Below, piece after piece: positions 5,835 to 44,264 of a stretch of 64,000 nt of DNA (within the stretch, counting starts at the first letter, position 1; the number at the start of each line of letters is the position of its first letter). The translations under genes and the position numbers were made by a program. Location: the NCBI GenBank assembly GCA_022571215.1, contig JACZYG010000002.1, positions 54,332 through 118,331 of the forward strand. Reading direction: 5' to 3'. The stretch is from Fidelibacterota bacterium. Lineage in GTDB: Bacteria; Fidelibacterota; SORT01. Below the pieces are notes generated by a model. The model was given only the letters and a program-made list of their open reading frames with translations. It was not told where the DNA came from and ran no database searches.

Positions 5835-7157
5835 TCAGTTCTTAGGCTTGAAAAGAAGCGTTATAGGAACCCCGAAAAAACCGAAAGCGGCGCGCAAGTT
5901 ATGCTCAAGAAATCGTTTATAGTTTTCTTTTATACCTTTCGGGTAATTGGTAAAAAAAACAAAAGTGGGAGGAATCGCGTTAACCTGATTGACGAACGTT
6001 ATCTTCACAAAACGATTATTATAACTCGGAGGTGATGTATGTTCAACCGTTGCGGTCAACCAGTCATTAAGCGGTTTGGTTTTTATGCTTTTGCGGGATT
6101 CATTGTAAATTTTGGAGACCAGGTCAAGAATCTTATGAATCCGCTGACCGTCGAGAGCGGAAATAAATTCTATCGGATAGCTTTCCAATAGAGGTAGCCT
6201 ATATTTGAGCTCTTCCAACCACTCTTTATGAGTACGGTTGGTTTTTTCTATCAGGTCCCATTTATTTACGGCAACCACGAGACACTTTCTCCTATCCAAT
6301 GCCTCAACAATTATACTTACGTCCTGTTTATCCATACCGCGGGTCACATCGAGCATAGCGACTACCACATCCGCTCTGTCCATCGCTCTCCGCGCCCTAA
6401 CGGTACTGTAAAATTCAACGGCGTCCTTGATCTTCGCTTTTCTTCTGATTCCCGCTGTATCGATTAAAGTATAGGTCTTTCCCTTATAGGAGACTACACT
6501 GTCGGCGCTGTCCCGGGTTGTGCCGGGAATGTCGGTAACTATTTGTCTCTCTTTATTCAAAAGTCTGTTGACAAGCGAGGATTTTCCGACATTAGGAACG
6601 CCGACAATTGCGATCTTTATCCCCTCATCCTCTTCAACAGAGGGCGCAGGTGACAGTTTGAAGTGGCTTACCGCCGCTTCTAAAAGATCGCCGGTTCTTC
6701 TACCCGATTCAGCGGAAACAGGAAATGGTTCGCCAAGACCGAGCTTCATAAAATCGTATATTTCCGGCTCTCGTGTTTCGTCGTCAACTTTATTGACGAC
6801 GAGTATGACTTTTTTTGATTGCTTCAAAATGACTTTTGCGATGTCCTCATCACCTGCCGTGATCCCTGTTTCTGAATCCACCACAAACAATACGAGTTCC
6901 GACTCATTAATCGCTTCTAACGCTTGCTCGCGAACAGACGAGAGGATAACCTCATCGGATTTTGAATCATATCCTCCGGTATCCACAAGAATAAAATCAT
7001 GTCCTGACCAGGAAACTTTCCCGTACTTCCTGTCCCGTGTGACCCCTTCGGTGGAATCTACTATAGCGTCCCGCCGTCCTACAAACCGGTTAAAAAGGGT
7101 GGATTTACCGACATTAGGTCTGCCGATTATGGAGACTATGGGAATAGATTGAGTCAA
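5835..7157 (-). CDS. der: Ribosome biogenesis GTPase Der (EngA)
   Basis: 440 aa with two tandem GTPase domains (GRPNVGKSTLFN and GVPNVGKSSLVN) plus KH-like C-terminus. Confidence 0.95.
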   Translation of the reverse strand: MTQSIPIVSIIGRPNVGKSTLFNRFVGRRDAIVDSTEGVTRDRKYGKVSWSGHDFILVDTGGYDSKSDEVILSSVREQALEAINESELVLFVVDSETGITAGDEDIAKVILKQSKKVILVVNKVDDETREPEIYDFMKLGLGEPFPVSAESGRRTGDLLEAAVSHFKLSPAPSVEEDEGIKIAIVGVPNVGKSSLVNRLLNKERQIVTDIPGTTRDSADSVVSYKGKTYTLIDTAGIRRKAKIKDAVEFYSTVRARRAMDRADVVVAMLDVTRGMDKQDVSIIVEALDRRKCLVVAVNKWDLIEKTNRTHKEWLEELKYRLPLLESYPIEFISALDGQRIHKILDLVSKIYNESRKSIKTKPLNDWLTATVEHTSPPSYNNRFVKITFVNQVNAIPPTFVFFTNYPKGIKENYKRFLEHNLRAAFGFFGVPITLLFKPKN

Positions 7158-7162: not shown

Positions 7163-8443
7163 CTAACTATAAAGCGAGTGAAAATCGTTGTTATAGACCT
7201 GAACCGGCAGACCGCATACTTTTGATATATCCTCAGGACGCATATTATCGAGAAAGAATCCGTCACTGTTCAATATACGCGGAGGTAGAAATACTTCGCC
7301 GATAGGATCGCCTTCCTGAAGAGTTCTGATCAGGTCCTGCGCGGAAAGTAATCCCGCGATTGTAACCGATTCGCCTAAAAATGTGTTTTTCGCCACAAGC
7401 AATTTGACCCTGAGGTTTTCAATTTTTTCCAAAGCGGGCAAGAGCTGCTCATTCAGTATTCCCTCCGCCAACGTGCCCGTAACCAAAGTTATCTCTTTCG
7501 GCTCATTCAAGCGATCGGGAAACTTCGTTTTAGCTTTGTCGAGTTCACTAATAAATTCCCGGACCAAACCGATACCGTTATCCAATTGAGGGAATTCATC
7601 GTAATATTCTTCTTCCGGAACAGGCTCGCCAGCCATGATATACCATTCGTCGGAAAGATAAACGAATCGTTTCCCGTCGGAGCGTGGGAATTCAGTATCC
7701 CATTTGGCTCCGTTTTTCAACATTTCACGGGCATAGTCGGGCGTAACGGGATCTATTTTAGTCAGCCCGTCCCTGTGTTTCGTCAGTCCGATAGGAACCA
7801 CAGCCATAGAGCGGACGTTTTTCCTGTAATTCCAGATATCCTTTATGGTATTTTCGAGAATATCACCGTCATTCATGCCGGGGCAGAGAACGACCTGCGA
7901 GTGCATCTCAATATTATTCTCATCGAGATAAGCGATTTTTTTCAGAATATCATCATCAAAATCTATTCCGAGCATGAATTTACGTGTTTCGGGATCGGTC
8001 ACGTGTATCGATATATAAATAGGGCTGAGCCGTTGCCTGACGATTCGTTCAAGCTCTTTCCACGAAGTATTCGTCAGGGTTACAAAGTTACCATGCAGGA
8101 AGGAGAGACGATAATCTCCGTCCCTGAAATAAAGAGAAAGCCGCATACCCGCGGGGAGTTGATCTACATAGCAGAAAACGCATTTGTTGCAGCACGATTT
8201 ATATTGCTTCGGGACAAAGGAGATACCCATATCGTCATCGGGATGTTTCTCTATCTCGAAGGAAACTTCCTGATTGTTGCGTTTGATAACGACATCAACG
8301 GAATCATCCGTAGCCAAAAACCGGTAATCGATGATGTCGCTGACGCCGCATCCGTTCACGCTAACGAGTTTATCACCCGGCTCTATGCCGACTTCGGAAG
8401 CTATACTGTCTTTTTCTACATCTTTTATTTCAATCAAAACCAA
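7163..8443 (-). CDS. DUF512 radical-SAM-like protein with N-terminal PDZ domain
   Basis: 426 aa; cysteine motif CxxxCxxC in CCNKCVFC; position immediately upstream of der is typical for this family. Confidence 0.7.
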   Translation of the reverse strand: MVLIEIKDVEKDSIASEVGIEPGDKLVSVNGCGVSDIIDYRFLATDDSVDVVIKRNNQEVSFEIEKHPDDDMGISFVPKQYKSCCNKCVFCYVDQLPAGMRLSLYFRDGDYRLSFLHGNFVTLTNTSWKELERIVRQRLSPIYISIHVTDPETRKFMLGIDFDDDILKKIAYLDENNIEMHSQVVLCPGMNDGDILENTIKDIWNYRKNVRSMAVVPIGLTKHRDGLTKIDPVTPDYAREMLKNGAKWDTEFPRSDGKRFVYLSDEWYIMAGEPVPEEEYYDEFPQLDNGIGLVREFISELDKAKTKFPDRLNEPKEITLVTGTLAEGILNEQLLPALEKIENLRVKLLVAKNTFLGESVTIAGLLSAQDLIRTLQEGDPIGEVFLPPRILNSDGFFLDNMRPEDISKVCGLPVQVYNNDFHSLYS

Positions 8444-10625: not shown

Positions 10626-11144
10626 ATGGAACTGAGCGGAAAAAAAGTTTTGATACCTATCGGTCCGGATTATCAGGACCTGGAAGTATGGTATCCGAAA
10701 CTTCGATTGACGGAAGCGGGAGCGGATGTCACATGCGCCGGAATCGGCGACAAAACGTATTACGGTAAAAACGGTTATCCTATAGACGTGGACGTTCAGA
10801 TAGAAGAATGCGCGGCGGACGATTTTGACGCGGTTATCATACCGGGCGGATGGGCGCCGGATAAGATCCGTATGAACAAACACGCCGTAGACATCGTCAG
10901 GACTATGTATAAAGAGGGCAAGGTAGTGGCTTCTATATGCCATGCGGGATGGGTGCTCGTTTCTGCGGGCATTCTTGAAGGTAAAAAAGCCACCTCATAT
11001 ATTGCGATAAAAGATGATATGATCGCCGCGGGAGCGGATTGGTCGGACGCCGAGGTAGTCGTTGACGGGAATTTGATAACTTCACGTAAGCCGGATGACC
11101 TTCCCGCGTTTTGCAGAGAGATAATAAGGCAATTGAGCGGTTAG
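10626..11144 (+). CDS. DJ-1/PfpI family protein
   Basis: 172 aa with nucleophile-elbow Cys in ICHAGWVL and the IIPGGWAPD motif. Confidence 0.85.
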   Translation: MELSGKKVLIPIGPDYQDLEVWYPKLRLTEAGADVTCAGIGDKTYYGKNGYPIDVDVQIEECAADDFDAVIIPGGWAPDKIRMNKHAVDIVRTMYKEGKVVASICHAGWVLVSAGILEGKKATSYIAIKDDMIAAGADWSDAEVVVDGNLITSRKPDDLPAFCREIIRQLSG

Positions 11145-11164
11145 CTGTTGTGAACAGAGAGAGG

Positions 11165-12568
11165 ATGATGAAAACTCGAATTGAAAAAGATTCTATGGGT
11201 GAAATGAGAGTACCCGAAAATTCTTATTACGGAGCGCAAACTCAGCGCGCGGTGGAGAATTTTCCTATCAGCGGAATAGGTTTTTCACGGCGGTTCATTC
11301 AAGCGCTCGGAATGCTGAAAAGAGCGGCGGCGAAAGTAAACGGCGAACTCGGATTGCTCGATGCCGACAGGAAAAAGGCTATCGTCAAGGCGGCGACCGA
11401 AGTAGTTGACGGAAAGTTTGACGATCAGTTCGTTATTGACATCTTTCAGACCGGTTCAGGCACCTCGACCAATATGAACGCGAACGAAGTGATAGGAAAC
11501 AGGGCGAGCGAACTAATGGGCGGCGCTCTCGGTTCGAGGGAGCCTGTGCACCCGAACGACCATGTGAATATGTGCCAGTCATCGAACGATGTGATCCCGT
11601 CCGCTATTCATCTCGCCGCGTATACAGCTATTTATGAGGACTTGATTCCCGCGCTCGAACAACTCGAAAAGTCGTTCGCGAACAAAGCGAAGAAATTCGA
11701 TAAGATACTGAAAATAGGCAGAACCCATCTTCAGGACGCGACTCCCGTACGGCTCGGGCAGGAGTTCGGCGGTTACGCCTCTCAGGTGAGTCACGCCATA
11801 AACCGAATCAAGAACGCCTCTAACGATTTGCTTGAGCTCGCTATCGGCGGCACTGCCGTCGGCACGGGCATTAACGCTCATCCCGATTTCGGCAGAAAAG
11901 TGGCGATGAAGATCTCCCTCGACACAGGCGCGAAATTCATCGAAGCGAAAAACCATTTTGAAGCGCAAGGCTCGAAAGACGCTGTCGTCAATATCTCAGG
12001 AGTTCTTAAGTCAACCGCCGTAGGCATCTCGAAAGCGGCGAACGATATCAGGCTCATGGGAGCGGGACCGCGAACAAGCATAGGCGAAATCAATCTGCCG
12101 GCGGTAGCGCCCGGCTCATCCATTATGCCGGGAAAGGTGAATCCCGTGATGGTGGAGATGGTGATGCAGGTGACCGCTCAGATCATAGGCAACGATGCGA
12201 CGATCACGAACGCGGGGCAGGGCGGACTTCTCGAACTCAACGTCATGATGCCGGTGATGGCTCATAATCTGCTGCAATCGGTTGAGTTGCTTTCTACCGC
12301 GTCGGCGACATTCGCGACCAGATGCGTGGACGGAATTGAGGTCAACAAGGAACGCGCGGCTGAACTCGTGGAGCAGAGCCTCGCTAACGCGACACCTCTT
12401 GCGCCTCTGATCGGCTACGACAAAGCGGCTAAGATCAGCAAAGAGGCGTTCAAAAAGGGTAAGACTATCCGTCAGATACTGAAGAGCAAAAAAATCCTTT
12501 CCGACGACAAGATAAACAAAGTTTTAAATCTAATGAAACTCACAAAACCGGGTATCAGTAAGAGGTGA
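11165..12568 (+). CDS. Fumarase C / aspartate ammonia-lyase family lyase (class II fumarate hydratase or aspartase)
   Basis: GSSIMPGKVNP signature, NMCQSSND, GRTHLQDATP. The following NPVMVEMV residues look more aspartase-like, so the assignment is ambiguous. Start moved to the ATG at 11165 (MMKTRIEKDSMGE) preceded by a GAGAGG Shine-Dalgarno; the longer ORF from 11111 overlaps the PfpI gene. Confidence 0.85.
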   Translation: MMKTRIEKDSMGEMRVPENSYYGAQTQRAVENFPISGIGFSRRFIQALGMLKRAAAKVNGELGLLDADRKKAIVKAATEVVDGKFDDQFVIDIFQTGSGTSTNMNANEVIGNRASELMGGALGSREPVHPNDHVNMCQSSNDVIPSAIHLAAYTAIYEDLIPALEQLEKSFANKAKKFDKILKIGRTHLQDATPVRLGQEFGGYASQVSHAINRIKNASNDLLELAIGGTAVGTGINAHPDFGRKVAMKISLDTGAKFIEAKNHFEAQGSKDAVVNISGVLKSTAVGISKAANDIRLMGAGPRTSIGEINLPAVAPGSSIMPGKVNPVMVEMVMQVTAQIIGNDATITNAGQGGLLELNVMMPVMAHNLLQSVELLSTASATFATRCVDGIEVNKERAAELVEQSLANATPLAPLIGYDKAAKISKEAFKKGKTIRQILKSKKILSDDKINKVLNLMKLTKPGISKR

Positions 12569-12628
12569 CTGTAGTTAGGATTAAGGCTTATCCTGACTGC
12601 CACAGTAACTGGATTTAGGGATGATTAA

Positions 12629-13336
12629 ATGAATATTATTTCAAAGAAAAGACTCTCAGCTTATTCTATATTAATGATAATACTCTTAGTAATTATAGGT
12701 ATCGCAATAGTAGGATTATGGGTGATGGGGTCGAGGGCTGAAAGCATTGTTGTTGGTTCGGTAGGACTGTATTTTTGGGCTATTAAATTCATTATGAGTG
12801 AGCATTTCAAGAAGATTGACCGAAAAGTTGTTCGGCAACACCAAATACTTCTTCAGGGCATCAAAGCTGGCTACGATTTCAAACAAACGGTTATGCAAAA
12901 TATGTATACAATCACTAATGAACTTTGGAAACGTTCAATTTGGATTGCAATGAACTGGAATAGCCTCTGGCCTGGAATGGATGGTGATTTAGAATTACGG
13001 AAGGAGTTCGACGCCAATTTTGAAGAGTATTACAAATTTAGGAGCAGCAATTCGATCAATATTCCTTCACACATTTTTACAGCTGCAGGTAAACTAATTG
13101 AAGGGATCGACACATATAAAAACGGTAGGATGGTCAAAAGCGATAAATCTTTTGATGCAGAAACGCGGAGAGAAGGTCATAAGAATATGTCTAGTGGTAC
13201 CCGATTAATCAAATCTTCCATGAAAGACTTATTTCGTGCAATCCGCGAGGAATTTGGTTTAGAACGGTTGCCCGGCGATGTGCTCAATATTCCAGTTCCA
13301 GAAGAGTCTCAAAGTAAGACTGAAGATCCAGAATAA
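12629..13336 (+). CDS. Hypothetical protein with two N-terminal transmembrane helices and a ~170 aa soluble domain of unknown family
   Basis: 235 aa; hydrophobic segments AYSILMIILLVIIGIAIVGLWVMG and IVVGSVGLYFWAIKFIM; the rest matches no family I recognise; AT-rich codon usage. Confidence 0.55.
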   Translation: MNIISKKRLSAYSILMIILLVIIGIAIVGLWVMGSRAESIVVGSVGLYFWAIKFIMSEHFKKIDRKVVRQHQILLQGIKAGYDFKQTVMQNMYTITNELWKRSIWIAMNWNSLWPGMDGDLELRKEFDANFEEYYKFRSSNSINIPSHIFTAAGKLIEGIDTYKNGRMVKSDKSFDAETRREGHKNMSSGTRLIKSSMKDLFRAIREEFGLERLPGDVLNIPVPEESQSKTEDPE

Positions 13337-13381
13337 ACCAATTCCTAAGATGGGTTTTGTTCAAAAATAACGAGGAGAGAT

Positions 13382-14221
13382 ATGTTGTATCATATTAGAA
13401 TATCTCAAAAATCAAATAAGAAAAGAGGCGAAGTGAAGGTTGATTTAACAGAAGAGCAGCTTAAAGATCGTTATGTAAAGCTCTATGAAGAAGGTATGCC
13501 TTTATTTATCAACGGTAAAACTATTCCAATTGATGATATTGAGAGAATCGAGATTAGCAGAAGTGACTTAGCGTCTAAGGATCTCATCAACCATATTAAA
13601 GCTGAAGATGCTCAAAGTAGTTTTGTGTTTTTAGGCGGACCATCGTATGAATGGAGTGCAGCCGATAGAGCTGAAGATGTAACTGAAGAATACATTACAG
13701 GACCTCCCGGATCTAAAAGAATTACTAATCCAACTGAAGAGATTATCCAAACATCAATGCTAAAATCAGAAAAAAAGGTGTTTGTTGTTCATGGACATGA
13801 TCAGGAATTAAAGAATGATGTTGAAGTATTTCTGAAAAACATTGGACTCGAACCAATTGTATTGCACAGAGAGGTCGATGAAGGATTAACCCTTATAGAA
13901 AAATTTGAGCGCCACTCCGATGTAGGATATGCGTTGATTTTAATAACACCGGATGATGAAGCGTTCCCAAAAAGTGAATTAAAAAAATCTGAGAACAAAC
14001 TTAAAATTGAATTACGAGCAAGACAAAATGTGATTTTTGAATGGGGTTACTTCGTTGGAAAGATTGGTCGTTCAAACGTATGTTGTGTGTATAAAGAGGG
14101 TGTTACACTTCCATCAGATATGGCAGGATTAGTTTATAAAAAAGTAACTAAGACTATTGAAGAGATCGGTTATGAATTAATTAAAGAATTAAACAACGCT
14201 GGATTCAAGTTAGAGATTTAA
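13382..14221 (+). CDS. Protein with C-terminal TIR-like Rossmannoid domain (COG4271/PF10137-type) and N-terminal domain of unknown function
   Basis: 279 aa; C-terminal region has KKVFVVHGHD, ALILITPDDEAF and RARQNVIFEWGYFVGKIGRSNVCCV, matching the pattern I recall for the bacterial TIR-like domain found in defence effectors. GGAG-type Shine-Dalgarno 45 bp after the upstream gene; AT-rich. Confidence 0.6.
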   Translation: MLYHIRISQKSNKKRGEVKVDLTEEQLKDRYVKLYEEGMPLFINGKTIPIDDIERIEISRSDLASKDLINHIKAEDAQSSFVFLGGPSYEWSAADRAEDVTEEYITGPPGSKRITNPTEEIIQTSMLKSEKKVFVVHGHDQELKNDVEVFLKNIGLEPIVLHREVDEGLTLIEKFERHSDVGYALILITPDDEAFPKSELKKSENKLKIELRARQNVIFEWGYFVGKIGRSNVCCVYKEGVTLPSDMAGLVYKKVTKTIEEIGYELIKELNNAGFKLEI

Positions 14222-14485
14222 CTGCGATTTTATAATTATTTGTTACTATTGATTTTGTGCATACAAAAAAATATGATTTCTTGATGTAGTAGCAACCGAT
14301 TATCTTATTTTAATACTTTGACTTTCTCTCCTAAATCGAATTGCAAATACCCATATCACAACTCCATAAACAGAAATTCCCATAATTTCCCTTGCCAATT
14401 AGATGGAGCCTAAGTATATTCAATTAAGACAAAAGTTGTCGTAATTAGATAAGTCAGATAATAACACTGACTTAAATGAACTGTA

Positions 14486-14893
14486 TTGATTGGAAAATTG
14501 ACAGAAATTGAGCGTCTGGAACTGATAAAAGGACTTGAAGAACACAACACGGGCAAGTACTTTGCCTGTCACGAGACATTGGAAGATATTTGGATGGATA
14601 AAGGGGGAGATTTGAGGCGATTCCTACAGGGATTGATACATGTGGCGGTCGGTTTCTATCATCTGAGAGATTCAAACTACGTCGGCGCGTACCGTCAACT
14701 CGAAAAGGCTAATCGGAAGCTATCGGATTATGCCACTGTCGAGGTCGGTATAAACCTTCCCAAGTTGCTGGAATCAATAAAAGTCTGGTTGGAGAATTTG
14801 CGGTTTCTTCTTGACAATCCCGACTCCGACAAGGACTTCGGCATCTTCCCAAAATTTGATTATAACGCTGAAAAGATCTTAGCGCTGACATAA
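14486..14893 (+). CDS. DUF309 domain protein
   Basis: 135 aa; CHETLEDIW...LQGLIHVAVGFYHL matches the DUF309 signature; precedes the suf operon. Confidence 0.65.
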   Translation: MIGKLTEIERLELIKGLEEHNTGKYFACHETLEDIWMDKGGDLRRFLQGLIHVAVGFYHLRDSNYVGAYRQLEKANRKLSDYATVEVGINLPKLLESIKVWLENLRFLLDNPDSDKDFGIFPKFDYNAEKILALT

Positions 14894-24956: not shown

Positions 24957-25018
24957 CTCCTCCTCCCCCTTAAAAAGGAGGGGAATTAAAATGTGCGGTC
25001 AGGGCTTGCCCTAACCGC
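24957..25018 (+). repeat. Degenerate copy of a dispersed hairpin module (CCCCCT...AGGAGGGG hairpin followed by ATGTGCGGTCAGGG)
   Basis: Sequence similarity to the elements at 32154-32234 and 53895-53962. Confidence 0.45.
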
Positions 25019-25151
25019 CACATAATTTTATTGTCATTGCGCGAGGAGCAGTAAAGCTGCGACGCGACAATCTCAGAAATTAGTTTAGCACCAGAATTTT
25101 GGTGCAACCAGCCTGCATCAGTCGGGCAGGTTCTGCCCGCGCTCATAAAAT

Positions 25152-25198
25152 AACCACCCCTGCCTCTTCGAGGCTTCCCCTCCTTGAAAAGGAGGGGA
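25152..25198 (+). repeat. 47-nt double-hairpin module: AACCACCCC, hairpin GCCTC/GAGGC, hairpin TCCCCTCCT/AGGAGGGGA
   Basis: Same length and architecture as 32022-32068; the first stem differs by compensatory changes while the second stem is identical. Confidence 0.55.
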
Positions 25199-25343
25199 TG
25201 AAAAATCCTGTAAGCTACTCTGAATTCAAGATATAATATTAGTAGAATGACTTGCTGAATCAGCAATAAATCAGGTAATATTTCACTATGAAAAGACCCG
25301 TTTCAATATGAAACTTAAACGTAATACTGAATAATAATGCCGC

Positions 25344-25372
25344 TTGACAATCAGTAACGATTGAAATATATT
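25344..25372 (+). promoter_or_regulatory. Candidate sigma-70 promoter: TTGACA, 17-nt spacer, TATATT
   Basis: Consensus -35 at 25344-25349 and near-consensus -10 at 25367-25372 with a 17-nt spacer, about 24 nt upstream of the 25396 start codon. Confidence 0.5.
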
Positions 25373-25395
25373 ATTCAGGGGAAATAAATACAATT

Positions 25396-26220
25396 ATGGA
25401 CACACTGCTAATTCTAAGAATAACGGTACCGCTCTTATATGCCGTTACGCTATATATTTATACGTTGGAATTTCGAGGTATACTCAAAGAACGTTCCGTA
25501 AAACCTACAATAGCCTTAATGATTTCTGTGGCGATCCATCTTGTCTTTTGGGTCGTGCTTTATTCTTCATCAGGCAAATACCCTATAGGTAGCCTTTTTG
25601 GAACGCTGACCACTTTTGTACTGCTTTTATCAATTATATATATGCTGATAGAATATGGAATGAATGACCGTTCCTTTGGTATATTTGTGCTGTCTCTTGT
25701 ATTACTCCTTCAAGTTGTGGCATCGATATTTATCAATCCTGAAGGAATTAGTTCTCCGCTATTAGAGGAAGTAATTTTCGAAATTCACGTTATATCGTTG
25801 ATTATATCGTATTCAGCTTTCGCTCTCGGAGCTATTGCGGCGGTCATGCATCTCCTTTTATCCAAAAAAATAAAACATCAGGAATTGGATATTGTTTACC
25901 ACAAACTCCCTACACTGCAATTTTTACGGCAGGTAGGTATTTTTTCTGTATACTTCGGATTTGTATTTTTGACGGCGGGCATAGCGCTCGGATTTTTTAA
26001 TGCTTCACAGGTCCCGGAGGCAGGCATATCGCTATCCGATCCGAAGATAGTCTCAGCTATTATTACATGGCTGATATACGGAATTTTCGTGCTGATACAT
26101 ATGTTGAAAAAATTAACAGCGAAATCAGCTATAAATCTATCGTTGATAGGATTTATCACAATTTTATTCACATTTTTCGTTGTGAATACTTTAATGGAAA
26201 CATTTCACCTCTTTCAATAG
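25396..26220 (+). CDS. Polytopic inner membrane protein (possibly cytochrome c assembly / HemX-like family; uncertain)
   Basis: 274 aa with about 8 hydrophobic helices; no WWD motif; family assignment is weak. Confidence 0.55.
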   Translation: MDTLLILRITVPLLYAVTLYIYTLEFRGILKERSVKPTIALMISVAIHLVFWVVLYSSSGKYPIGSLFGTLTTFVLLLSIIYMLIEYGMNDRSFGIFVLSLVLLLQVVASIFINPEGISSPLLEEVIFEIHVISLIISYSAFALGAIAAVMHLLLSKKIKHQELDIVYHKLPTLQFLRQVGIFSVYFGFVFLTAGIALGFFNASQVPEAGISLSDPKIVSAIITWLIYGIFVLIHMLKKLTAKSAINLSLIGFITILFTFFVVNTLMETFHLFQ

Positions 26221-26232
26221 GCCAATGATTCG

Positions 26233-28068
26233 TTGAAAATATCCGGAATCAAATACCGCTCTTCAGATAGTTCAGAATTCGACTCCATTCGTGAATTGAT
26301 CAGAGAAAAATCCGTTGAGTCAATTAATTTTGATTTTCAAGGTTATGAGCATCAGTATTGGGTTTCAAATGACAGAGAAAAGTCAATAAACCAAAGAGTT
26401 CAAAAGAGCATACCGATATTGGGTCATGAGGAATCCTTACAAAATATATTCAGAATTTGCTGCGGACTTTCGAACGAACAAATCGGCACAAAGAAGGGTT
26501 TTAAGAGTTTTGAATCTGCAATAATTTCGGGGAAGCAAAAGGACAGAGTAGGTCCTCTTTTTTCAAGGTTATATACCGATATTGAAGCTGTTCTGAGGAA
26601 TATTTACTCTTCAACGACATTGAGAACGGGTGTAATCGAAAGGTTTTCTGCCGCTGCGGAATTGTCGGTAAAAATATTTGGTGATTTGAACGATAAGTCA
26701 GCATTAGTGATCGGCGAAAGTTCATTTTTCAAAGAAGTGAAAGCAGCGTTAAAAGAAAGAGATATTGGATTCGTTGAGTCGTTAAGGAATAACAAGATTA
26801 GAGATGAGGAATTGTCCGCTTATGATATTCTTGTAGTTAAAGAAGAGACGACAGATAAAATAAATCAGATATACGAACTTGTTCCAAAAATGACCAGGTC
26901 AAATGAATCATCATTTCTTATACTTGATTTTGGATCGGCTGCAAACTCGCTCCATGAGCTGGGAAATATTTACAATGTTTTTTATACTCATGCTTCGTCC
27001 CTCGATTCGGTAATTTCACGGAATTTGAAATTGAGAAGCGACGCGATTCCTGAAGCGGAAAAAATTATCGAGCGTCGAGTAAAAGAATTTCTGAAATGGA
27101 GCGAGTCGGATAAATGGGATGTCTCTAAAAGCATCATCGCGCGTTCACATCAGATGCAAAAAGTCTTCGAGCTTATTTATAAGGTAGCCCCTTCGAATGC
27201 TATCGTTATCATATCGGGCGAAACGGGAACCGGAAAAGAGCTTGTTGCAAAGGCGATTCACAAGTCAGGTCAACGCGGAGATAAGCCTTTTATAGCCGTA
27301 AATTGCGGCGCAATACCGGAAAATTTACTCGAAAGCACACTTTTCGGTTATGTAAAAGGAGCATTTACCGGAGCTCACGAGGATAAAAAGGGTATTTTCC
27401 AAGCCGCGGACGGAGGCGTACTCTTCTTAGACGAAATTGCGGAATTACCGATGATGCTCCAGGTAAAACTTCTTCGAGCGTTGCAGGATAATGAGATCAC
27501 ACCGGTAGGGGGAAACAGGAGTAATAAAGTAAATGTAAGGATTCTTGCTGCAACGAATAAAAATTTAATGAAAGAGGTGATGGAGGGAAGATTCCGCGAG
27601 GATCTGTTTTATCGTCTGAACGTCGTGGAGATCGTCGTGCCTCCGCTCCGTGAAAGGGTTGATGATATACTGGCTTTAGCGAATCATTTTTTACTCGAAC
27701 ACTCTAATAGAACTCAGAAAGATAAATTCAGATTATCAGATTCTGCCGCTGAGCTGCTAACTCAATATCAATGGCCCGGAAACGTTCGGGAGCTTCAGAA
27801 CGTAATAGAACGAGCCGCTGTACTGTCTGATTCATCAACAATATTGCCAAGCGATCTTCCCGAAGGGGTCTTGGAGAACAGGGACCGTTCAATTTCAGTT
27901 GTTTCAGAAAAAGATATGTCGCTTGAGGAGATCGAAGAAGAGCACATCAGATTGATGCTGCGAAAAAACAGATATAATTACAATTCAGTGGCGGAAACGC
28001 TCGGAATCGGAAGAACGACCTTGTGGCGAAAGATGAAAAAGTATGGGATTGCTTCGGTTGACGAGTAA
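26233..28068 (+). CDS. Sigma-54-dependent transcriptional activator (enhancer-binding protein) with a non-REC N-terminal domain
   Basis: 611 aa; AAA+ core with Walker A GETGTGKE and the GAFTGA sigma-54 contact motif; C-terminal Fis-type HTH; ~300 aa N-terminal domain of unknown type. Confidence 0.85.
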   Translation: MKISGIKYRSSDSSEFDSIRELIREKSVESINFDFQGYEHQYWVSNDREKSINQRVQKSIPILGHEESLQNIFRICCGLSNEQIGTKKGFKSFESAIISGKQKDRVGPLFSRLYTDIEAVLRNIYSSTTLRTGVIERFSAAAELSVKIFGDLNDKSALVIGESSFFKEVKAALKERDIGFVESLRNNKIRDEELSAYDILVVKEETTDKINQIYELVPKMTRSNESSFLILDFGSAANSLHELGNIYNVFYTHASSLDSVISRNLKLRSDAIPEAEKIIERRVKEFLKWSESDKWDVSKSIIARSHQMQKVFELIYKVAPSNAIVIISGETGTGKELVAKAIHKSGQRGDKPFIAVNCGAIPENLLESTLFGYVKGAFTGAHEDKKGIFQAADGGVLFLDEIAELPMMLQVKLLRALQDNEITPVGGNRSNKVNVRILAATNKNLMKEVMEGRFREDLFYRLNVVEIVVPPLRERVDDILALANHFLLEHSNRTQKDKFRLSDSAAELLTQYQWPGNVRELQNVIERAAVLSDSSTILPSDLPEGVLENRDRSISVVSEKDMSLEEIEEEHIRLMLRKNRYNYNSVAETLGIGRTTLWRKMKKYGIASVDE

Positions 28069-36801: not shown

Positions 36802-39180
36802 ATGATAGAAAAGAAAAAGAAAGAAAGACGGAAGGAAGTAGTGGGGTTGCTCCTCATGACTCTGGCTCTGCTTGTTGGAGCTTCCATGTTCAGCTACGAT
36901 ATGTCTGAAGAACCGGGTAACGTTACACAACTCAGAACGAATAATTATCTTGGTATCGGCGGAGTATATCTGTCTCATTACTTAATAAAAATGTTTCTCG
37001 GAGTTGGCTCGGCGGTTATTCCCGTGTTGCTTTTTATCTGGGGTTTTTGGCTGTTTACAAGCAGGGGGATTAAATCCCTCTTACGGTTTACCCTGTTATT
37101 ATTGGTTTTAGCTCTTTTGTTCTCAACCGTTATGGCGCTGTTGCTCGGAAAACCTTGGGCTGTTCCGGGAGTTTTAGGCGGATTATTTGCCGGCTTTCTC
37201 CAAACTTTTTTTGGCACATTAGGAGCCTGGGTTTTTGTCGGTCTCACGATGCTGCTGGTCATAACAGGATATTTTGGTTGGAGTCTTTATAATATGGCGA
37301 GCGGGATCGGAGGACCATTCAGAAAGATCATCACATCTCTAAGCCGATTAAAGCCGAGCAAAAAGAAGAAAAGAAAACCGGTTATAAGAGAATCGTCGGT
37401 CCTTGAAGAAGCAACGGCGGAAGAATCGGAAAAGGAGGAATCTTGGACTCCCCCTGAAGTGGTGACTCTTGATGACCCGCCGTCCGAGCCTGAAGATCAA
37501 GAGCCTTTGATAGACGCCGATGTTCCGCCAATTCCCACAAACGGAAATGCGTTACGGGACGACTCCCTCCCAATTGAGAAAGAAAAATCTCCCGCGCAAA
37601 CAATTCAGGAAGATGATTCAGAATTTGAGGTTAAAGATCAAGTAATTGAAGAAGAAATTGATTATGATGCCGAACGCGCCGAGTACGCCCGCCGTGAATT
37701 TAATTTGCCCTCTGTAGACCTTCTCGAACAGGCTCCACCGGTTATCGAAGATCAGATATCCCGTGAAGAGATAATGGACAACGCGAAACTATTAGAAGAC
37801 ACTCTCGAAAGTTTTGGCGTGAGCGCAAAGGTGGTGGAAGTTCATCCGGGTCCGGTAATCACGCGGTTCGAACTCGAACCTGCTACCGGAGTGAAAGTCA
37901 GCAAGATAGTAACTCTATCCGACGACATAGCTCTTGCGATGAGAGCGAAGAGGGTGAGAATTCTTGCGCCGATACCCGGGAAAGCAGCCGTAGGGATCGA
38001 GATACCCAATAAGAACGCGCAAACCGTGTTTCTCCGTTCGGTGATAAATTCTGAAAAGTTTGCTGCGATGGATTCACCTTTGGCTATTGCGCTTGGTAAA
38101 ACCTCATCAGGGGAAACTATATGCGTAGACCTCGCGACCATGCCGCATCTCTTAATTGCAGGCTCCACAGGCTCGGGTAAAAGTGTTTGTATCAACTCGA
38201 TTATTACAAGCATGCTATATAAAGCGCGTCCTGATGAACTTAAATTCATCATGATCGACCCAAAGAAATTGGAACTTTCAACTTATAAGAAGCTGAAAAA
38301 TTATCATCTGATGCCACTGAGGGACGTTAAAGAGGATATAATTACATTGCCCCAGTTGGCGGTACTCGCTCTGAAAAGCGCTGAAGTAGAAATGGAAAGA
38401 AGATACGATCTTCTTGCTGAAGCGGGCGTGAGAAGCATTGCCGAGTATAACAGCAAGGCGGAAACCGCGGAAGATATGACGAAATTACCGTATTTGGTGA
38501 TAATCGTGGACGAACTTGCTGATCTGATGATAACCGCCGCAAAAGATATTGAAGAGCCGATATCCCGTTTAGCTCAAATGGCGCGAGCGGTCGGCATTCA
38601 CCTGATAGTCGCCACTCAACGACCATCGGTTGACGTCCTTACAGGCGTAATTAAAGCGAACTTCCCCGCCCGGATGGCGTTTCAAGTGGCATCGAAAACC
38701 GATTCCCGCACTATTATTGATATGAACGGCGCAGAAAAATTGCTTGGTAAGGGAGACATGCTTTATGTTCCACCTGCGGAACCGGAAGCTATAAGAGTTC
38801 ATAATTCTTTCGTTTCGCTGCCGGAAATTGAAAGAGTATTGGAGCATATAAGCAATCAGCCTAAATATGAGGAGAAACCGCTGCCGTCAGTGAAGGAAAC
38901 CCCTCTTCAATCCGAAGGCGACGGTTACCTCGAATTTTACGGAAACGACTCGCTGCTTCCGGAGTCTATGCGACTCGTGGTCATGCATCAGCAAGGCTCA
39001 ATATCCCTATTACAACGCAGGCTTAAGGTGGGATATTCCAGGGCAGCTCGCCTTATAGACGAGTTGGAAAACGCGGGAGTCGTTGGACCGTTTGAGGGAA
39101 GTAAAGCGAGGGAAGTACTTTGGGATGAACAGGATTTGAAGAAAAATTTAGAACAAGATGATGACGAGGGAGAAAAATGA
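36802..39180 (+). CDS. ftsK: DNA translocase FtsK/SpoIIIE
   Basis: 792 aa; N-terminal membrane helices, Pro/Glu-rich linker, motor domain with Walker A GSTGSGKS and C-terminal gamma domain. Confidence 0.9.
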   Translation: MIEKKKKERRKEVVGLLLMTLALLVGASMFSYDMSEEPGNVTQLRTNNYLGIGGVYLSHYLIKMFLGVGSAVIPVLLFIWGFWLFTSRGIKSLLRFTLLLLVLALLFSTVMALLLGKPWAVPGVLGGLFAGFLQTFFGTLGAWVFVGLTMLLVITGYFGWSLYNMASGIGGPFRKIITSLSRLKPSKKKKRKPVIRESSVLEEATAEESEKEESWTPPEVVTLDDPPSEPEDQEPLIDADVPPIPTNGNALRDDSLPIEKEKSPAQTIQEDDSEFEVKDQVIEEEIDYDAERAEYARREFNLPSVDLLEQAPPVIEDQISREEIMDNAKLLEDTLESFGVSAKVVEVHPGPVITRFELEPATGVKVSKIVTLSDDIALAMRAKRVRILAPIPGKAAVGIEIPNKNAQTVFLRSVINSEKFAAMDSPLAIALGKTSSGETICVDLATMPHLLIAGSTGSGKSVCINSIITSMLYKARPDELKFIMIDPKKLELSTYKKLKNYHLMPLRDVKEDIITLPQLAVLALKSAEVEMERRYDLLAEAGVRSIAEYNSKAETAEDMTKLPYLVIIVDELADLMITAAKDIEEPISRLAQMARAVGIHLIVATQRPSVDVLTGVIKANFPARMAFQVASKTDSRTIIDMNGAEKLLGKGDMLYVPPAEPEAIRVHNSFVSLPEIERVLEHISNQPKYEEKPLPSVKETPLQSEGDGYLEFYGNDSLLPESMRLVVMHQQGSISLLQRRLKVGYSRAARLIDELENAGVVGPFEGSKAREVLWDEQDLKKNLEQDDDEGEK

Positions 39181-39827
39181 GATTTTTATTTACCGGTAAA
39201 CTATCCATAACGTCAATGGTATTTCTTCTGTCTTTGAACGCGCCACAGCTCTCTTTCGGTCAGTCAGCCAAAGAAGTTATGGATAAAATGCGTGATGTCC
39301 TTAGAAAACAGAAAGAAATCTCTATCTCTTACGAACAATCATTTAGCTGGAAATCATCCAGCTCGGTCAGCAAGAGCTTCGGAAAATTGGATATGAAAAA
39401 CCTTAAAAAATTACGGCTTCAAACGGATGAACAAACGCTTGTCACTGATGGAGATCTGATCTGGACGTATTCATCCTTTACGAATCAGGTGGTGATAAAT
39501 AAAATTGATAAATCGGGTGGAACGATATTTCCGAGTGATTTCTTATTTGAATATCCAAAGGATTATAATTCGAAATTGGTTGATGAAAACAAGTTCAAGG
39601 GTGAATATCTAATCTTATTGACGCCTAAGAATAGAAGCAGTTTTGTCACTGCCATCAGAATCTGGCTGGATGACAAAGATTTTCTCATTCGTAGTATCGA
39701 GTATAAGGATATTAACGGTAACGTGACATTATGGGAAGTTACGGAGATGGATATTGAGCCGAACTTTGGTGATTCTCATTTTGATTTTGAGACGCCTCCC
39801 GGAGCAGAAGTAGTTGACCTACGCTGA
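39177..39827 (+). CDS. lolA: LolA-like outer-membrane lipoprotein carrier protein
   Basis: 216 aa with signal peptide; LolA-like length and conserved ftsK-lolA synteny. Confidence 0.6.
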   Translation: MRFLFTGKLSITSMVFLLSLNAPQLSFGQSAKEVMDKMRDVLRKQKEISISYEQSFSWKSSSSVSKSFGKLDMKNLKKLRLQTDEQTLVTDGDLIWTYSSFTNQVVINKIDKSGGTIFPSDFLFEYPKDYNSKLVDENKFKGEYLILLTPKNRSSFVTAIRIWLDDKDFLIRSIEYKDINGNVTLWEVTEMDIEPNFGDSHFDFETPPGAEVVDLR

Positions 39828-39842
39828 AATTGAAGATTATTC

Positions 39843-40832
39843 ATGAATAAAAAACATGTTCTCGGGATAATAATAAGTCTGACCTTTGTATATTTTGCGT
39901 TCCGCGATATAAATTTAGAAGAGTTCATTGAATTGATAAAAGAAGGGCAGTACGTCTGGTTATTGCCTGCCATTACAGCTATGCTAGCGAGTTTTTGGCT
40001 AAGGGGTTATAGATGGAAAATCATACTTGAACCGGTTAAAGAGATCAGCATTCGATCGGCGTTTTCTGCCACAATGATAGGATATATGGCGAATAATATT
40101 CTTCCGTTCCGCATAGGGGATCTCATTCGCTTAGTTGCGATATCGAAAGAAACAAAGGTTTCAAAGGCGGCAGCTCTCGGCTCTGTAGTGATAGAACGAA
40201 TATTTGATCTATTTATGATTCTTGCGATCTTCGGTATAGCGCTGTTTGCATATCCCCAACTTCCTCAGTGGGCGGTAGGCGCAGGATATTTCGCTGTCGG
40301 AATATTTTCGGTTTTAATATTTTTTTCGTTTTATGCAAGAAATAATGTAGAGACGCTTGTAAGATTTAGTAAGAAGTTCATGGGTAAATTTTCCGACAAA
40401 GCAGCGGAAAAAGGTGAATCGATCATCCGATCTTTTTCTGACGGATTAAAAGTAATTCACAATGTTAAGGGCCTTCTGTGGCTGGTGCTTGTATCCGTTG
40501 CACTCTGGTTTATAAGTATACTTTGGGTTTGGTTTACATTGGAAATATTCGATTTTGATCTGCCTTTCAGCGCATCGTTTCTTGTCATAATATTTATCAT
40601 TTTTGCGGTATCAATCCCATCAGCGCCCGGATATGTCGGCACATTCCATGGGTTTGTAATCGCTGCTTTGATGTTTATGCGAGTGGATGCGGATGCCGCA
40701 AGGGCAAGCGCGGTTGTCATGCATGCGACAAACTACATCCCCGTGACCGTTATAGGGCTTTACTACCTTTGGAGCAGTAATTTCAGTTTGAAATCAGCTA
40801 CTAAAAACGCGGCTCTTATTGATGAACAATGA
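39843..40832 (+). CDS. Flippase-like / lysylphosphatidylglycerol-synthase transmembrane-region family protein (UPF0104)
   Basis: 329 aa polytopic membrane protein with LRGYRWK and NILPFRIGD motifs typical of this family. Confidence 0.65.
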   Translation: MNKKHVLGIIISLTFVYFAFRDINLEEFIELIKEGQYVWLLPAITAMLASFWLRGYRWKIILEPVKEISIRSAFSATMIGYMANNILPFRIGDLIRLVAISKETKVSKAAALGSVVIERIFDLFMILAIFGIALFAYPQLPQWAVGAGYFAVGIFSVLIFFSFYARNNVETLVRFSKKFMGKFSDKAAEKGESIIRSFSDGLKVIHNVKGLLWLVLVSVALWFISILWVWFTLEIFDFDLPFSASFLVIIFIIFAVSIPSAPGYVGTFHGFVIAALMFMRVDADAARASAVVMHATNYIPVTVIGLYYLWSSNFSLKSATKNAALIDEQ

Positions 40833-40958
40833 CCATCCGGGTATCCGATGAGAACTCTTGAGAATTAGCATGATCAATATAATAAATATCCTATGAGCCT
40901 AAAGAACCGCAACATCATGTTATATGTTGATTGTTCATAATGGATAACTTAATTTTGC

Positions 40959-41339
40959 TTGGCTGATTTGCGGGAGAATTTTTTGGATAGAATCACGTTA
41001 AATAATATGGTTTTTTTCGGTTATCATGGCGCCATGTCGGAGGAACAGGAGATAGGCGGGAGGTTTGAGGTAGATATAGACCTGTTAGGCGATTTTAGCC
41101 AAGCATCGAAATCTGATGATCTTTCAAAAGCGGTAGATTATCAAAAGGCGTATGAGAGCATCAAGCCGATTATAGAAGGCGAAAAATATAATCTTATTGA
41201 AGGATTGGCAGAAGCGGTTGCAAAAAAGATATTGGGTGAATTTGAGGTGTCGAGAGTGAACGTTCGGTTGAGAAAACGAAACGTGCCAATCGGAGGAGTT
41301 ATTGATTTCGTAGAGGTCGAGCTCACCCGGGACAAATAG
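40959..41339 (+). CDS. folB: Dihydroneopterin aldolase
   Basis: 126 aa; FFGYHGAMSEEQEIGGRFEVD pattern. Confidence 0.85.
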   Translation: MADLRENFLDRITLNNMVFFGYHGAMSEEQEIGGRFEVDIDLLGDFSQASKSDDLSKAVDYQKAYESIKPIIEGEKYNLIEGLAEAVAKKILGEFEVSRVNVRLRKRNVPIGGVIDFVEVELTRDK

Positions 41340-41359
41340 AGGATGAAATAGAGTATACT

Positions 41360-41872
41360 TTGAAAACGACCGCCTATATTGGAATGGGTTCCAATCTCGG
41401 TGATAGAGAAGAAAACCTGAATAAGGCTCTTGAGTTATTGACGAGAATCGAGGGAACAGAGCTTGAAACATATTCGGATATCTTTGAAAGTGAACCTATG
41501 TATCTATCGGCGCAGCCTGATTATCTTAACATGGCGGCTATGCTTTCAACAAGTTTATCCCCCCTGAATTTATTGGAAGAGCTGTTATCGTTAGAAAACG
41601 GGATGGGAAGAGTACGGGAAATTAAGTTCGGATCGCGCGTCATTGATCTTGACATATTGTTTTTTGGAGAGGAGATAATTAATTCCGAAGCGCTCAGACT
41701 GCCTCATCCGTCGTTATACGACAGACTGTTCGTTTTACTCCCGCTGAGTGAGATTGCCGGTGATTTGATCTGCCCTGTCAAACAAAAAACCGTCAGTGAA
41801 TTGTTAAAGCTATCCAAGGATAATTCCCGCATATCAAAATACGAAAACAAAACTCCGGTGGAATCTGACTGA
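41360..41872 (+). CDS. folK: 2-amino-4-hydroxy-6-hydroxymethyldihydropteridine pyrophosphokinase
   Basis: 170 aa; YIGMGSNLGDREENL and DLDILFFGEEIINS motifs. Confidence 0.85.
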   Translation: MKTTAYIGMGSNLGDREENLNKALELLTRIEGTELETYSDIFESEPMYLSAQPDYLNMAAMLSTSLSPLNLLEELLSLENGMGRVREIKFGSRVIDLDILFFGEEIINSEALRLPHPSLYDRLFVLLPLSEIAGDLICPVKQKTVSELLKLSKDNSRISKYENKTPVESD

Positions 41873-41876
41873 AATT

Positions 41877-42515
41877 ATGAGAAACATTTATTATATAGCG
41901 GTTGAAGGGGTTATTGGAGTCGGCAAGACGAGTTTATGCTCAATAATAGGGGAATATTTTTCAGCGAAAATTGTTTATGAAAAGTTTGAAGAAAATCCAT
42001 TTTTGGAAGATTTTTATTCTGATAGAGAACGATTCGCTTTTCAAACTCAACTCTACTTTCTTTTGAGTCGTTATCGGCAACATCAGGATATGATGCAGGT
42101 GGAGCTATTTCATAAACTGCTTGTATCCGATTATATGTTTGTCAAGGACAAGATATTCGCGAATATTACATTGTCTGACAAGGAGCTGGTTCTTTATAAT
42201 TCGGTAGTCACTTTATTAGAGCGTGATATTCCAAATCCTGATCTTGTGATATACCTGCAATCCACTACTGACAGGCTGATGGAAAATATCCGGGCGCGCG
42301 GGCGGCATTATGAGGAATTGATAACCGATGATTATTTGCAACAGCTTAACGATGCGTATAATGATTTTTTCCTTCGATACGAAAGTAGTCCTCTTCTGAT
42401 AGTGAACTCGACAGACATAGATTTCGTCAACGATGATAAAGACAGGGATAATCTGTTGAGTAAAATAAGACAGCCCTTTTCAGGAACCAGATACTATAAT
42501 CCGAAGGGTTTGTGA
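41877..42515 (+). CDS. Deoxynucleoside kinase
   Basis: 212 aa; P-loop EGVIGVGKTS, ERF and DR motifs of the dNK family. Confidence 0.85.
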   Translation: MRNIYYIAVEGVIGVGKTSLCSIIGEYFSAKIVYEKFEENPFLEDFYSDRERFAFQTQLYFLLSRYRQHQDMMQVELFHKLLVSDYMFVKDKIFANITLSDKELVLYNSVVTLLERDIPNPDLVIYLQSTTDRLMENIRARGRHYEELITDDYLQQLNDAYNDFFLRYESSPLLIVNSTDIDFVNDDKDRDNLLSKIRQPFSGTRYYNPKGL

Positions 42516-42685
42516 TGTTAAAATTTATTATATTTTTGGCAGTTGGTTGGTTTTTACTGAAAATCTTCAGGGGAGCGAAATTTCTCAAAAAAAATAAAGT
42601 CACGACACCTGAGAGAGATAAAAAGAATAAATTAAAATATAATAAAGGTGACATCGAAGATGCAGATTTCAAGGACTTGGATTGA
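42515..42685 (+). CDS. Small membrane-anchored protein (56 aa), unannotated in the ORF track
   Basis: ATG overlaps the dNK stop (TGATG); MLKFIIFLAVGWFLLKIF hydrophobic helix followed by a Lys-rich tail. Confidence 0.35.
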   Translation: MLKFIIFLAVGWFLLKIFRGAKFLKKNKVTTPERDKKNKLKYNKGDIEDADFKDLD

Positions 42686-42709
42686 GTGAATAACATAAAG
42701 GGATAACGT

Positions 42710-43753
42710 TTGACTGAACTAATCAACATACTTTTAGAGGAAGAAAATGTCCTTTTCTTATTGAGGGGCGGTTTCAGGATAATTCTGATTTTGCTGATTG
42801 CAAAAATAGCCTATAGTCTGATAAATAAAAGATTCCTGGAACGGCTTAATCGAGCGCAGAAAACATCAGGTGCAAGCCGCGAAACCGATAAAAGCCTTAC
42901 GCTGTTACCTATCTTCCAAAATATTCTGAAAATAGGTATCTGGTCTATAGCGTGGATCCTGGTTCTCGGAGAATTAGGAATAAATACCACCGCCTTGATA
43001 GCAGGCATCGGAATGCTCGGAATTGCTCTCGGTTTGGCAGCACAGTCGATGATAAAGGATCTTATAGCCGGATTCCTGCTTATTCTCGAAAATTTGATAT
43101 TGGTAGGTGATTCGATAGTTGTCGGAAATATTTCAGGCAAAGTTGAGCAGGTTGGAATCAGGTACACTAAAATTCGATTGTTCTCCGGTGAATTACGGAT
43201 AGTCCCAAACAGTGAACTGTCTAATTTCGGTAATAAGAATAGAGGGTACATGAGAGTGATAGTTGATGTAGGACTGGCTTATGAACAGGACCTGGAGAAA
43301 GCTTTATTGGTCATGAAGGAAGTTGCTTCATTGTGGGCAAGAGACAATTCTGAGATCATCATAGAATATCCATCGGTCCAAGCGATAACAGAATTTGGTG
43401 ACAGCGCGCTGTTAGCAAGAATTGTCGCTACCGTAAAACCGGGCGAGCAGGGGAATGCGGAAAGAACAATTAGAAGTCTCCTAAAGCAAAAATTTGATGA
43501 ACGGAATGTCGATATGCCCTTTCCGAGAAGGCATCTGTATCTTCATACACAAGATTCACAGGATTTCAATATTAATGTAGAAAATCTTGATATTCTTCCA
43601 GAGCCTGGTTCAAAGGAAGAACTTGAAAATCCCTCACTGACGGGGATGGTCTTTGAGAGGGAGGTAAAGAAAATGTCAGGAGCGATGGATAAGCTAAGTA
43701 ATATGTTTAATAATAAAGATTCACCTAAAGAAGACGAAGATAAAAAAGATTGA
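42710..43753 (+). CDS. mscS: Mechanosensitive ion channel MscS family protein
   Basis: 347 aa; pore-lining TM3 signature IAGIGMLGIALGLAAQSMIKDLIAGF and beta-domain GDSIVVGNISGKVEQVGIRYTKIR. Confidence 0.85.
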   Translation: MTELINILLEEENVLFLLRGGFRIILILLIAKIAYSLINKRFLERLNRAQKTSGASRETDKSLTLLPIFQNILKIGIWSIAWILVLGELGINTTALIAGIGMLGIALGLAAQSMIKDLIAGFLLILENLILVGDSIVVGNISGKVEQVGIRYTKIRLFSGELRIVPNSELSNFGNKNRGYMRVIVDVGLAYEQDLEKALLVMKEVASLWARDNSEIIIEYPSVQAITEFGDSALLARIVATVKPGEQGNAERTIRSLLKQKFDERNVDMPFPRRHLYLHTQDSQDFNINVENLDILPEPGSKEELENPSLTGMVFEREVKKMSGAMDKLSNMFNNKDSPKEDEDKKD

Positions 43754-44259: not shown

Positions 44260-44264
44260 AAACA

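Follow-up and report, generated by a model that had tools for sequence, protein, structure and literature searches.

Do two adjacent genes on a contig of a Fidelibacterota bacterium form a two-gene phage-defence cassette, or are they separate modules that happen to lie side by side? The genes occupy part of a 64,000-nt stretch of contig JACZYG010000002.1 (the window), and a first-pass annotation made from the sequence alone had presented them as a candidate uncharacterised defence module of abortive-infection type, composed of a protein with two transmembrane (TM) helices and a TIR-like domain protein. Open reading frame (ORF) coordinates confirmed the two co-directional genes:

12629..13336, + strand: gene of the 235-aa protein, a membrane hairpin plus four-helix bundle; rare unnamed family
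13337..13381, + strand: intergenic spacer of 45 bp with a GAGGAG ribosome-binding site before the second gene
13382..14221, + strand: gene of the 279-aa PDC-S35-family protein, with an N-terminal sensor-like domain, a linker and a Cap12/PycTIR-type TIR domain

Our preferred explanation, to which we give a probability of roughly 0.6, is that these are two independent single-gene conflict modules that are neighbours by chance in this Marinimicrobia lineage. It is based on domain identities, folds, conservation, purifying selection, gene contexts and the absence of a conserved partnership, and an abortive-infection-type role, as originally proposed, is still the most plausible inference.

Gene neighbourhoods indicate that the pair is not a conserved two-gene unit outside its immediate lineage. 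At 80 TIR-family loci taken from GTDB species representatives, the bundle (2-TM) family, to which the 235-aa protein belongs, had no member within 8 kb. TIR homologues of 53-62% identity from four further metagenome lineages had unrelated neighbours and no 2-TM gene, and on Acinetobacter plasmids of 6.7 kb and 10.9 kb the TIR gene was the lone cargo among toxin-antitoxin modules. All-against-all neighbour clustering of 24 full-length TIR loci returned no recurrent partner, shared neighbours being limited to three related Methanosarcinales islands. The 2-TM family is regarded as independent of the TIR family because its relatives in six lineages (L010-12, L014, L015, L016-18, L019-20 and L021-22) had no TIR-family neighbour. 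One of these (L016-18), at 69% identity, is as close to the window protein as is the relative that keeps the pair (L001, 67%), yet its gene is followed by nothing TIR-like, and on one contig the expected TIR position is taken by an opposite-strand gene. The "two-gene cassette" thus did not hold up, and the suggested new minimal sensor-effector arrangement lost its premise, as the pair is not a conserved unit.

Within the lineage the pair does recur. One relative (L001) keeps both genes, with a TIR protein 83% identical, a 2-TM protein 67% identical and a DNA identity of 79% across window positions 12671-14438; the pair is also present on a low-coverage contig near-identical to the window (L013), and these two are the sole recurrences. 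That the two genes never co-occur elsewhere, the outcome named beforehand as speaking against a cassette, is therefore true outside the lineage and untrue within it. A 296-aa database protein from L013 (P0115), an apparent fusion of the N-terminal domain with an AAA+ ATPase, was judged an assembly chimera. This contig (ENA NODE_41979) shares ~98% DNA identity with the window up to TIR residue ~150, and is almost certainly chimeric because its coverage is 1.9x and it switches to Cdc48/PAN-like sequence inside the TIR beta-1 strand.

The recurrence in L001 could also reflect a lineage-specific system in which the TIR and 2-TM proteins cooperate. In a Thoeris-like version of this explanation an NAD-derived signal made by the TIR protein would bind the bundle and open the membrane hairpin, while in a second version the membrane protein would anchor, restrain or trigger the TIR NADase. 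Both genes lie on the same strand and are separated by only the 45-bp gap with its ribosome-binding site, and co-transcription is possible because a terminator scan between them found none. Set against this arrangement and the retained pair in L001 are the absences at all 80 genome loci, at all other sampled TIR loci and in the six other 2-TM lineages. Synonymous divergence (dS) between the window and L001 also differs two-fold (2-TM gene 0.86, TIR gene 0.45), which weakly suggests that each gene has a history of its own. Membrane proteins were not enriched among operon-like TIR neighbours (15/73 vs 173/905, Fisher p=0.76), for which reason a general layout of a TIR protein with any membrane partner was likewise rejected. 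Finally, the TIR domain belongs to the PF10137 effector clade and its PADLOC matches are to effector TIR models only. Taken together, we consider cooperation of the two proteins unlikely.

The 279-aa protein is, as judged by family models, an ordinary member of the PF10137 clade and of the catalogued family PDC-S35. The PF10137 assignment made earlier by eye was borne out with 122.1 bits against a gathering threshold of 24.7 (E=1.7e-35), residues 132-256 aligning to model positions 1-118 of 119, and the protein has the TIR (flavodoxin-like) fold of this family. PADLOC model PDLC05007 (PDC-S35) spans the protein (residues 1-278 vs model positions 1-273 of 278, E=3.7e-69), and a second PDC-S35 model, PDLC05004, matched with E=4.4e-65. 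We detected 2,674 homologues, mostly 273-283 aa in length, across Bacteroidota, Marinimicrobia, Aerophobetes, Gammaproteobacteria, Campylobacterota, Bacillota and Methanosarcinales archaea; an identical protein is on record from a Candidatus Marinimicrobia metagenome-assembled genome, encoded on a 189-kb contig. The ratio of nonsynonymous to synonymous substitution rates (dN/dS) was 0.20, indicating purifying selection. With a full-length match to a catalogued family and this many homologues, the novelty claimed for the TIR protein was not sustained. PDC-S35 is a single-gene "phage defence candidate" of PADLOC (Payne et al. 2024 preprint), and PDC systems are 145 untested candidates that were nominated since their members were embedded in bacteriophage exclusion (BREX), defence island system associated with restriction-modification (DISARM) or type I restriction-modification (RM) loci. 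The parts of the protein are as follows:

13382..13717, + strand: N-terminal domain, residues 1-112, presumed sensor
13718..13771, + strand: variable disordered linker, residues 113-130
13772..14218, + strand: TIR domain (PF10137), residues 131-279
14039..14041, + strand: GAA codon of Glu220 in NVIFEWGYF, the presumed catalytic glutamate

Mean pairwise identity within the family was 52% for the N-terminal domain (across phyla), 18% for the linker and 65% for the TIR domain. Glu220 was invariant among 108 homologues and aligned with the glutamate of NVVFEFG in the solved Cap12 TIR-STING chains 9lmq and 7un8; from what is known of TIR NADases it is presumed to be the catalytic residue. The N-terminal domain was modeled by AlphaFold2 with per-residue confidence scores (pLDDTs) mostly of 82-94 over residues 1-112, and scores below 50 at linker residues 116-126. 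Strands (E) and helices (H) were assigned as E2-9, E17-22, H24-36, E41-43, E46-48, E53-61 and H65-78, an order (b1-b2-a1-b3-b4-b5, with helices after) that appears beta-grasp-like in the model, and Pfam Ubiquitin_5 gave sub-threshold matches to 4 of 22 members; both are leads only. In line with the first-pass annotation, which recognised nothing in this domain, no named Pfam family was matched: there were zero Pfam matches at E<=1, cyclic-nucleotide-binding domains included, and profile searches against PDB sequences and Pfam returned nothing significant. Ten residues are near-invariant (H4, E17, K19, Y35, N44, T47, R55, W91, T101 and G110).

The same TIR domain was also found behind other N-terminal regions of similar size in 63 fetched genome ORFs. 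Because of these ORFs, and because three of the five PDC-S35 models (PDLC05003/5/6) align with the TIR half alone, the TIR domain is, on these alignments, a constant effector with exchangeable N-terminal domains; the same three models imply that PDC-S35 as defined takes in several different N-terminal domains. In Methylobacterium sp. Leaf99 (L052), tandem TIR-family genes at 6164-7048 and 7629-8441 have differing N-terminal regions, which looks like local duplication within the family accompanied by divergence at the N-terminus.

Genes neighbouring the TIR homologues included HEPN_Swt1/DUF5343, MqsA/SocA, integrases or fragments thereof, transposases and a type VI retron reverse transcriptase (RT). 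Matches confined to the TIR domain were present in 1,150 PLSDB plasmid records, mostly of Klebsiella (617), Escherichia (367) and Salmonella (65), and roughly half of these plasmids were conjugative; by these match counts, a PF10137 gene is widespread on enterobacterial plasmids. Mobile-element maintenance would be another explanation for such contexts, in which a toxin-like action of the TIR protein, and possibly also of its 2-TM neighbour, would stabilise plasmids or islands or help them compete. It is consistent with these plasmid matches, with full-length homologues on very small non-mobilizable plasmids amid toxin-antitoxin modules, and with HipA/HipB-like, MqsA and integrase genes among the neighbours. 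No antitoxin-like small gene is conserved beside the TIR gene, however, the copy in the window lies on a chromosome away from any mobility genes, and PDC families are defined by embedding in BREX, DISARM or type I RM loci, which makes maintenance an improbable primary role. Addiction and defence roles are not mutually exclusive.

A role outside conflict altogether, in which the TIR-like domain would process nucleotides or nucleosides and the 2-TM protein would be a membrane sensor unrelated to it, draws on the fold common to nucleoside 2-deoxyribosyltransferases (NDTs) and CMP hydrolases. Sequence models, however, give PF10137 and PDC-S35, not Nuc_deoxyrib_tr, and the TIR family is patchy and horizontally scattered in bacteria and archaea, with variable contexts that include plasmids. 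As the DNA around the two genes is also atypical in GC content, and the predicted cytoplasmic bundle carries no kinase or methyl-accepting chemotaxis protein output domain, a housekeeping role is very unlikely.

The retron RT (E=9e-79) neighboured the TIR homologue in L106-L108, which are IMG/VR uncultivated virus genomes together with GenBank OR850936, from Salmonella/E. coli. In L107 (3974-5837), RT_VI lies directly upstream of a full-length PDC-S35 homologue and overlaps it, and in L106 the RT frame continues into the N-terminal domain with the TIR domain in another frame, which may represent a frameshift or pseudogene. PDC-S35 as a retron effector was considered and rejected, as RT_VI is adjacent in this one enterobacterial lineage only. 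Since type VI retrons are self-contained, carrying their own toxin and antitoxin, and no RT was found in the window or at ~100 other TIR loci, the homologue in L106-L108 is regarded as a neighbour and not as a retron component. Among archaea, the PDC-S35 homologues of L034, L037 and L038 (Methanosarcinales / Methanoperedens) share a methyltransferase-like ORF as well as an ORF starting KVFVSSVQKELEDER, DUF4062-like by eye, which points to a defence island common to these archaea.

The 235-aa protein belongs to a much smaller family and consists of two parts:

12659..12799, + strand: TM hairpin, residues ~11-57 (TM1 11-32, loop MGSRAE, TM2 ~36-57)
12872..13255, + strand: predicted cytoplasmic four-helix bundle, residues ~82-209, the conserved core of the family

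AlphaFold2 placed helices at residues 11-32 and 36-80. Hydropathy was 2.96 for TM1 and 1.43 for TM2, and with three lysine or arginine residues before TM1 and five after TM2, the positive-inside rule predicts an N-in/C-in topology. A database version of the protein (P0121, 203 aa) begins at Met33 and omits TM1; we favour the 235-aa start because TM1 is conserved across the family. Purifying selection was evident for this gene as well (dN/dS 0.24-0.28).

A word-indexed search with the 235-aa protein returned three matches, giving it an orphan-like appearance, and an exhaustive phmmer search of 1.84 billion representatives identified 15 related clusters with identities down to ~29%. Conserved motifs of the family are ELWxRSIWIAxNWNxLWPG, YKxGR, EGGxxMSxG and IRxEFG. 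No Pfam, NCBIfam or PADLOC model matched its members consistently, SLATT and other TM-effector models included; when 14 members were scanned, weak matches occurred in one or two members each (S_4TM, 0.055; CyanoTRADDas_TM, 0.2; PADLOC 4TM, 0.19; BnzB, 0.0084). The earlier view that the soluble domain of this protein is unrecognisable was thus borne out, and the profile and PADLOC searches that had been recommended for both proteins placed the TIR protein (PF10137, PDC-S35) and found no family model for its neighbour. No member of the family was detected in the plasmid, phage or IMG/VR collections or in species-representative genomes, and an alignment-based locus search found only two metagenome loci.

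In two relatives, P0135 and P0139, a RelA/SpoT domain (PF04607, E=6e-21) takes the place of the TM hairpin and is followed by the same bundle; the RelA part of both matches PADLOC PDC-S33 (E=8e-22). At L008/L009 (8001-9059) this 352-aa fusion (P0139, P0135) follows a 337-aa TIR/NDT-like protein and a REase-ARP nuclease within a type I RM island. The fusion could be a new fused module of the toxic small alarmone synthetase (toxSAS) type, and the 2-TM/bundle family and its RelA/SpoT fusions, known from a handful of short contigs, appear undescribed in the databases and literature searched. Genes beside family members were:

L010, 2-TM member: PDC-S18 (E=2e-134), a MIT_C PLD-like protein and a DpdF-like helicase
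L021, 2-TM member: a type IIG RM enzyme
L015, 2-TM member: a DUF559 nuclease
L008/L009, RelA-bundle fusion: type I RM, DUF6161, REase-ARP and the TIR/NDT-like protein

A candidate class III cyclase, suggested by cyclase-like motifs noticed by eye upstream of the 2-TM homologue P0125 (L019), was dropped, as neither Pfam nor PADLOC supported it. The bundle bears on cooperation of the two window proteins in three ways: it is modular in the manner of signal-activated effectors, being joined to a TM hairpin in some proteins and to a RelA/SpoT domain in others; recently described Thoeris types use TM effectors with domains of unknown function; and the RelA-bundle fusion of L008/L009 has the TIR/NDT-like protein encoded two genes upstream of it. 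Against the last point, the TIR-like protein of L009 shares only a 13-residue motif with the TIR family (hhalign probability 0.4%). L008/L009 was accordingly rejected as a second co-occurrence of TIR and bundle, since the 337-aa protein is not homologous beyond the catalytic motif and a REase gene intervenes. The more specific proposal of a new Thoeris-like two-gene system, in which the bundle family would be modular abortive-infection proteins recruited here beside a PF10137 TIR and an NAD-derived signal or direct contact would open the membrane effector, seems quite unlikely to us.

Both genes lie in an islet that differs from its surroundings in base composition:

12500..14500, no strand: low-GC islet holding both genes and the downstream spacer, with fumarase on one side and DUF309/sufCBD on the other
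12574..12597, + strand: hairpin GTTAGGAT-N8-ATCCTGAC, just 3' of the fumarase stop codon
14222..14485, no strand: AT-rich spacer 3' of the TIR gene, part of the islet, GC ~0.29, no Rfam match

The GC content is 0.52-0.58 at 11.5-12.4 kb (fumarase), 0.29-0.42 over ~12.5-14.5 kb, and recovers beyond 14.5 kb in DUF309/sufC. Because of this sharp drop the islet is probably acquired DNA; neither a tRNA, an integrase, flanking direct repeats above chance nor an Rfam match was found as a sign of mobility. The window average is ~0.45, and further low-GC stretches (0.36-0.41) occur at 25000-27000 and 39000-45000. DNA conservation with L001 extends into the AT-rich spacer, up to window position 14438. 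The left flank (aconitase, a PfpI/DJ-1-like protein and fumarase at 11111-12568) and the right flank (DUF309 followed by SufC/B/D, from 14486 onward) are all housekeeping genes, and the islet does not lie in a defence island. When 55 window proteins were scanned with PADLOC, PDC-S35 was the sole specific match among the best 25 of 50 matched families, and the remaining matches among these 25 look like generic cross-matches of housekeeping enzymes. The hairpin pattern at 12574..12597 occurs once across the window against 0 expected, and is probably a terminator or a repetitive extragenic palindromic (REP)-like element that sets the islet apart from fumarase. A related hairpin-containing 28-nt sequence is identical between L001 (1-29) and an intergenic window site (53931-53958), and could be a REP-like element that this lineage carries between genes.

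Under the explanation we prefer, two independent modules, each protein would act by itself. The N-terminal domain of the 279-aa protein would detect an infection cue directly, a step proposed because no signal-generating enzyme accompanies the PDC-S35 family. With the domain tethered by the flexible linker to the Cap12/PycTIR-type TIR domain, detection of the cue would lead to TIR-TIR assembly and this to Glu220-dependent NAD+ hydrolysis, so that the infected cell, depleted of NAD+, would no longer support phage growth (abortive infection). In the 235-aa protein, the four-helix bundle may be a regulatory or sensor module that governs a membrane-damaging hairpin, or in its relatives the RelA/SpoT toxin domain. 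Several points weigh against this explanation. The close, same-strand arrangement of the two genes and their joint retention in L001 are as expected of partners, and most contigs of the 2-TM family span only 1-4 kb, on which a partner encoded several genes away could go unnoticed. The islet is surrounded by housekeeping genes, with no defence island there. To our knowledge, every PF10137 relative with a solved structure uses a ligand that a partner enzyme supplies. The defence role of PDC-S35 is attributed through guilt by association; neither an experiment on this family nor a mention of it was found in the searchable literature, and a cold-seep study that tested some PDC candidates did not have PDC-S35 among them.

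Overall, an apparently unclassifiable TIR cassette turned out to include a routine member of a widespread and already catalogued candidate family. PDC-S35 is a reasonable experimental target, being present in bacteria and archaea, having no partner enzyme and possessing a well-conserved N-terminal domain that presumably recognises the trigger. The 235-aa protein is the more original result, as its bundle is combined with two toxic-looking partners and recurs beside RM and defence genes; that it represents a new single-protein defence family is plausible from these contexts. Neither result alters current understanding unless experiment confirms it.

How, then, do the two proteins compare with known systems? 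As the first-pass annotation had stated, the pair has no partner from cyclic oligonucleotide-based antiphage signalling systems (CBASS), pyrimidine cyclase systems for antiphage resistance (Pycsar) or Thoeris nearby. Relative to the Cap12/TIR-STING proteins of CBASS (7un8, 9lmq), the 279-aa protein has no STING domain and its TIR domain is C-terminal, which reverses the domain order. No cGAS/DncV-like nucleotidyltransferase was present among the neighbours (fumarase, the 2-TM protein and DUF309) or among the best 25 of 50 PADLOC families, no STING or SAVED Pfam domain was detected, and the NCBIfam Cap12 models scored 37 and 35 bits against a 450-bit cut-off. PycTIR of Pycsar (8jsj) is of similar size and likewise has a C-terminal PF10137 TIR domain behind a sensor domain; the PADLOC PycTIR match (E=1.6e-6) covers residues 179-256 only, i.e., the TIR part. 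No pyrimidine cyclase is adjacent, and the N-terminal domain has no Pfam match to cyclic nucleotide monophosphate-binding domains. SpbK (9phb) is also a single-protein TIR defence, with a TIR domain of a different clade and an unrelated N-terminal domain. Membership of type VI retrons, which requires an adjacent RT and non-coding RNA, does not apply, as the window contains no RT.

The window pair resembles Thoeris with membrane effectors (types II, VI and VII) in that the neighbour of its TIR gene encodes a TM protein whose cytoplasmic domain has no known function. It differs in that its TIR domain is not of the ThsB type (at E<=1 only PF10137 matched, with no match to PF08937 or PF13676, and PADLOC gave no ThsB match) and in that the pairing is not conserved; family scans of the two proteins also found none of the Thoeris-related domains Macro, SLATT and DUF6650. 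By itself, the 235-aa protein could not be assigned to SLATT, S_4TM, PycTM or the CBASS TM effectors. Its relatives P0135 and P0139 resemble fused toxSAS (CapRel-type) and PDC-S33 proteins in having a RelA_SpoT domain followed by the four-helix bundle, whereas the window protein lacks the RelA/SpoT domain, and no resemblance of the bundle to known toxSAS regulatory domains was detected. The logic of CapRel is a toxin domain joined to a C-terminal regulatory domain. For the 279-aa protein, PDC-S35 provides the match in every respect compared, with the same length, stand-alone behaviour without an obligatory partner, and an architecture of N-terminal domain plus TIR domain, and in the absence of any detectable difference it is a member of this family.

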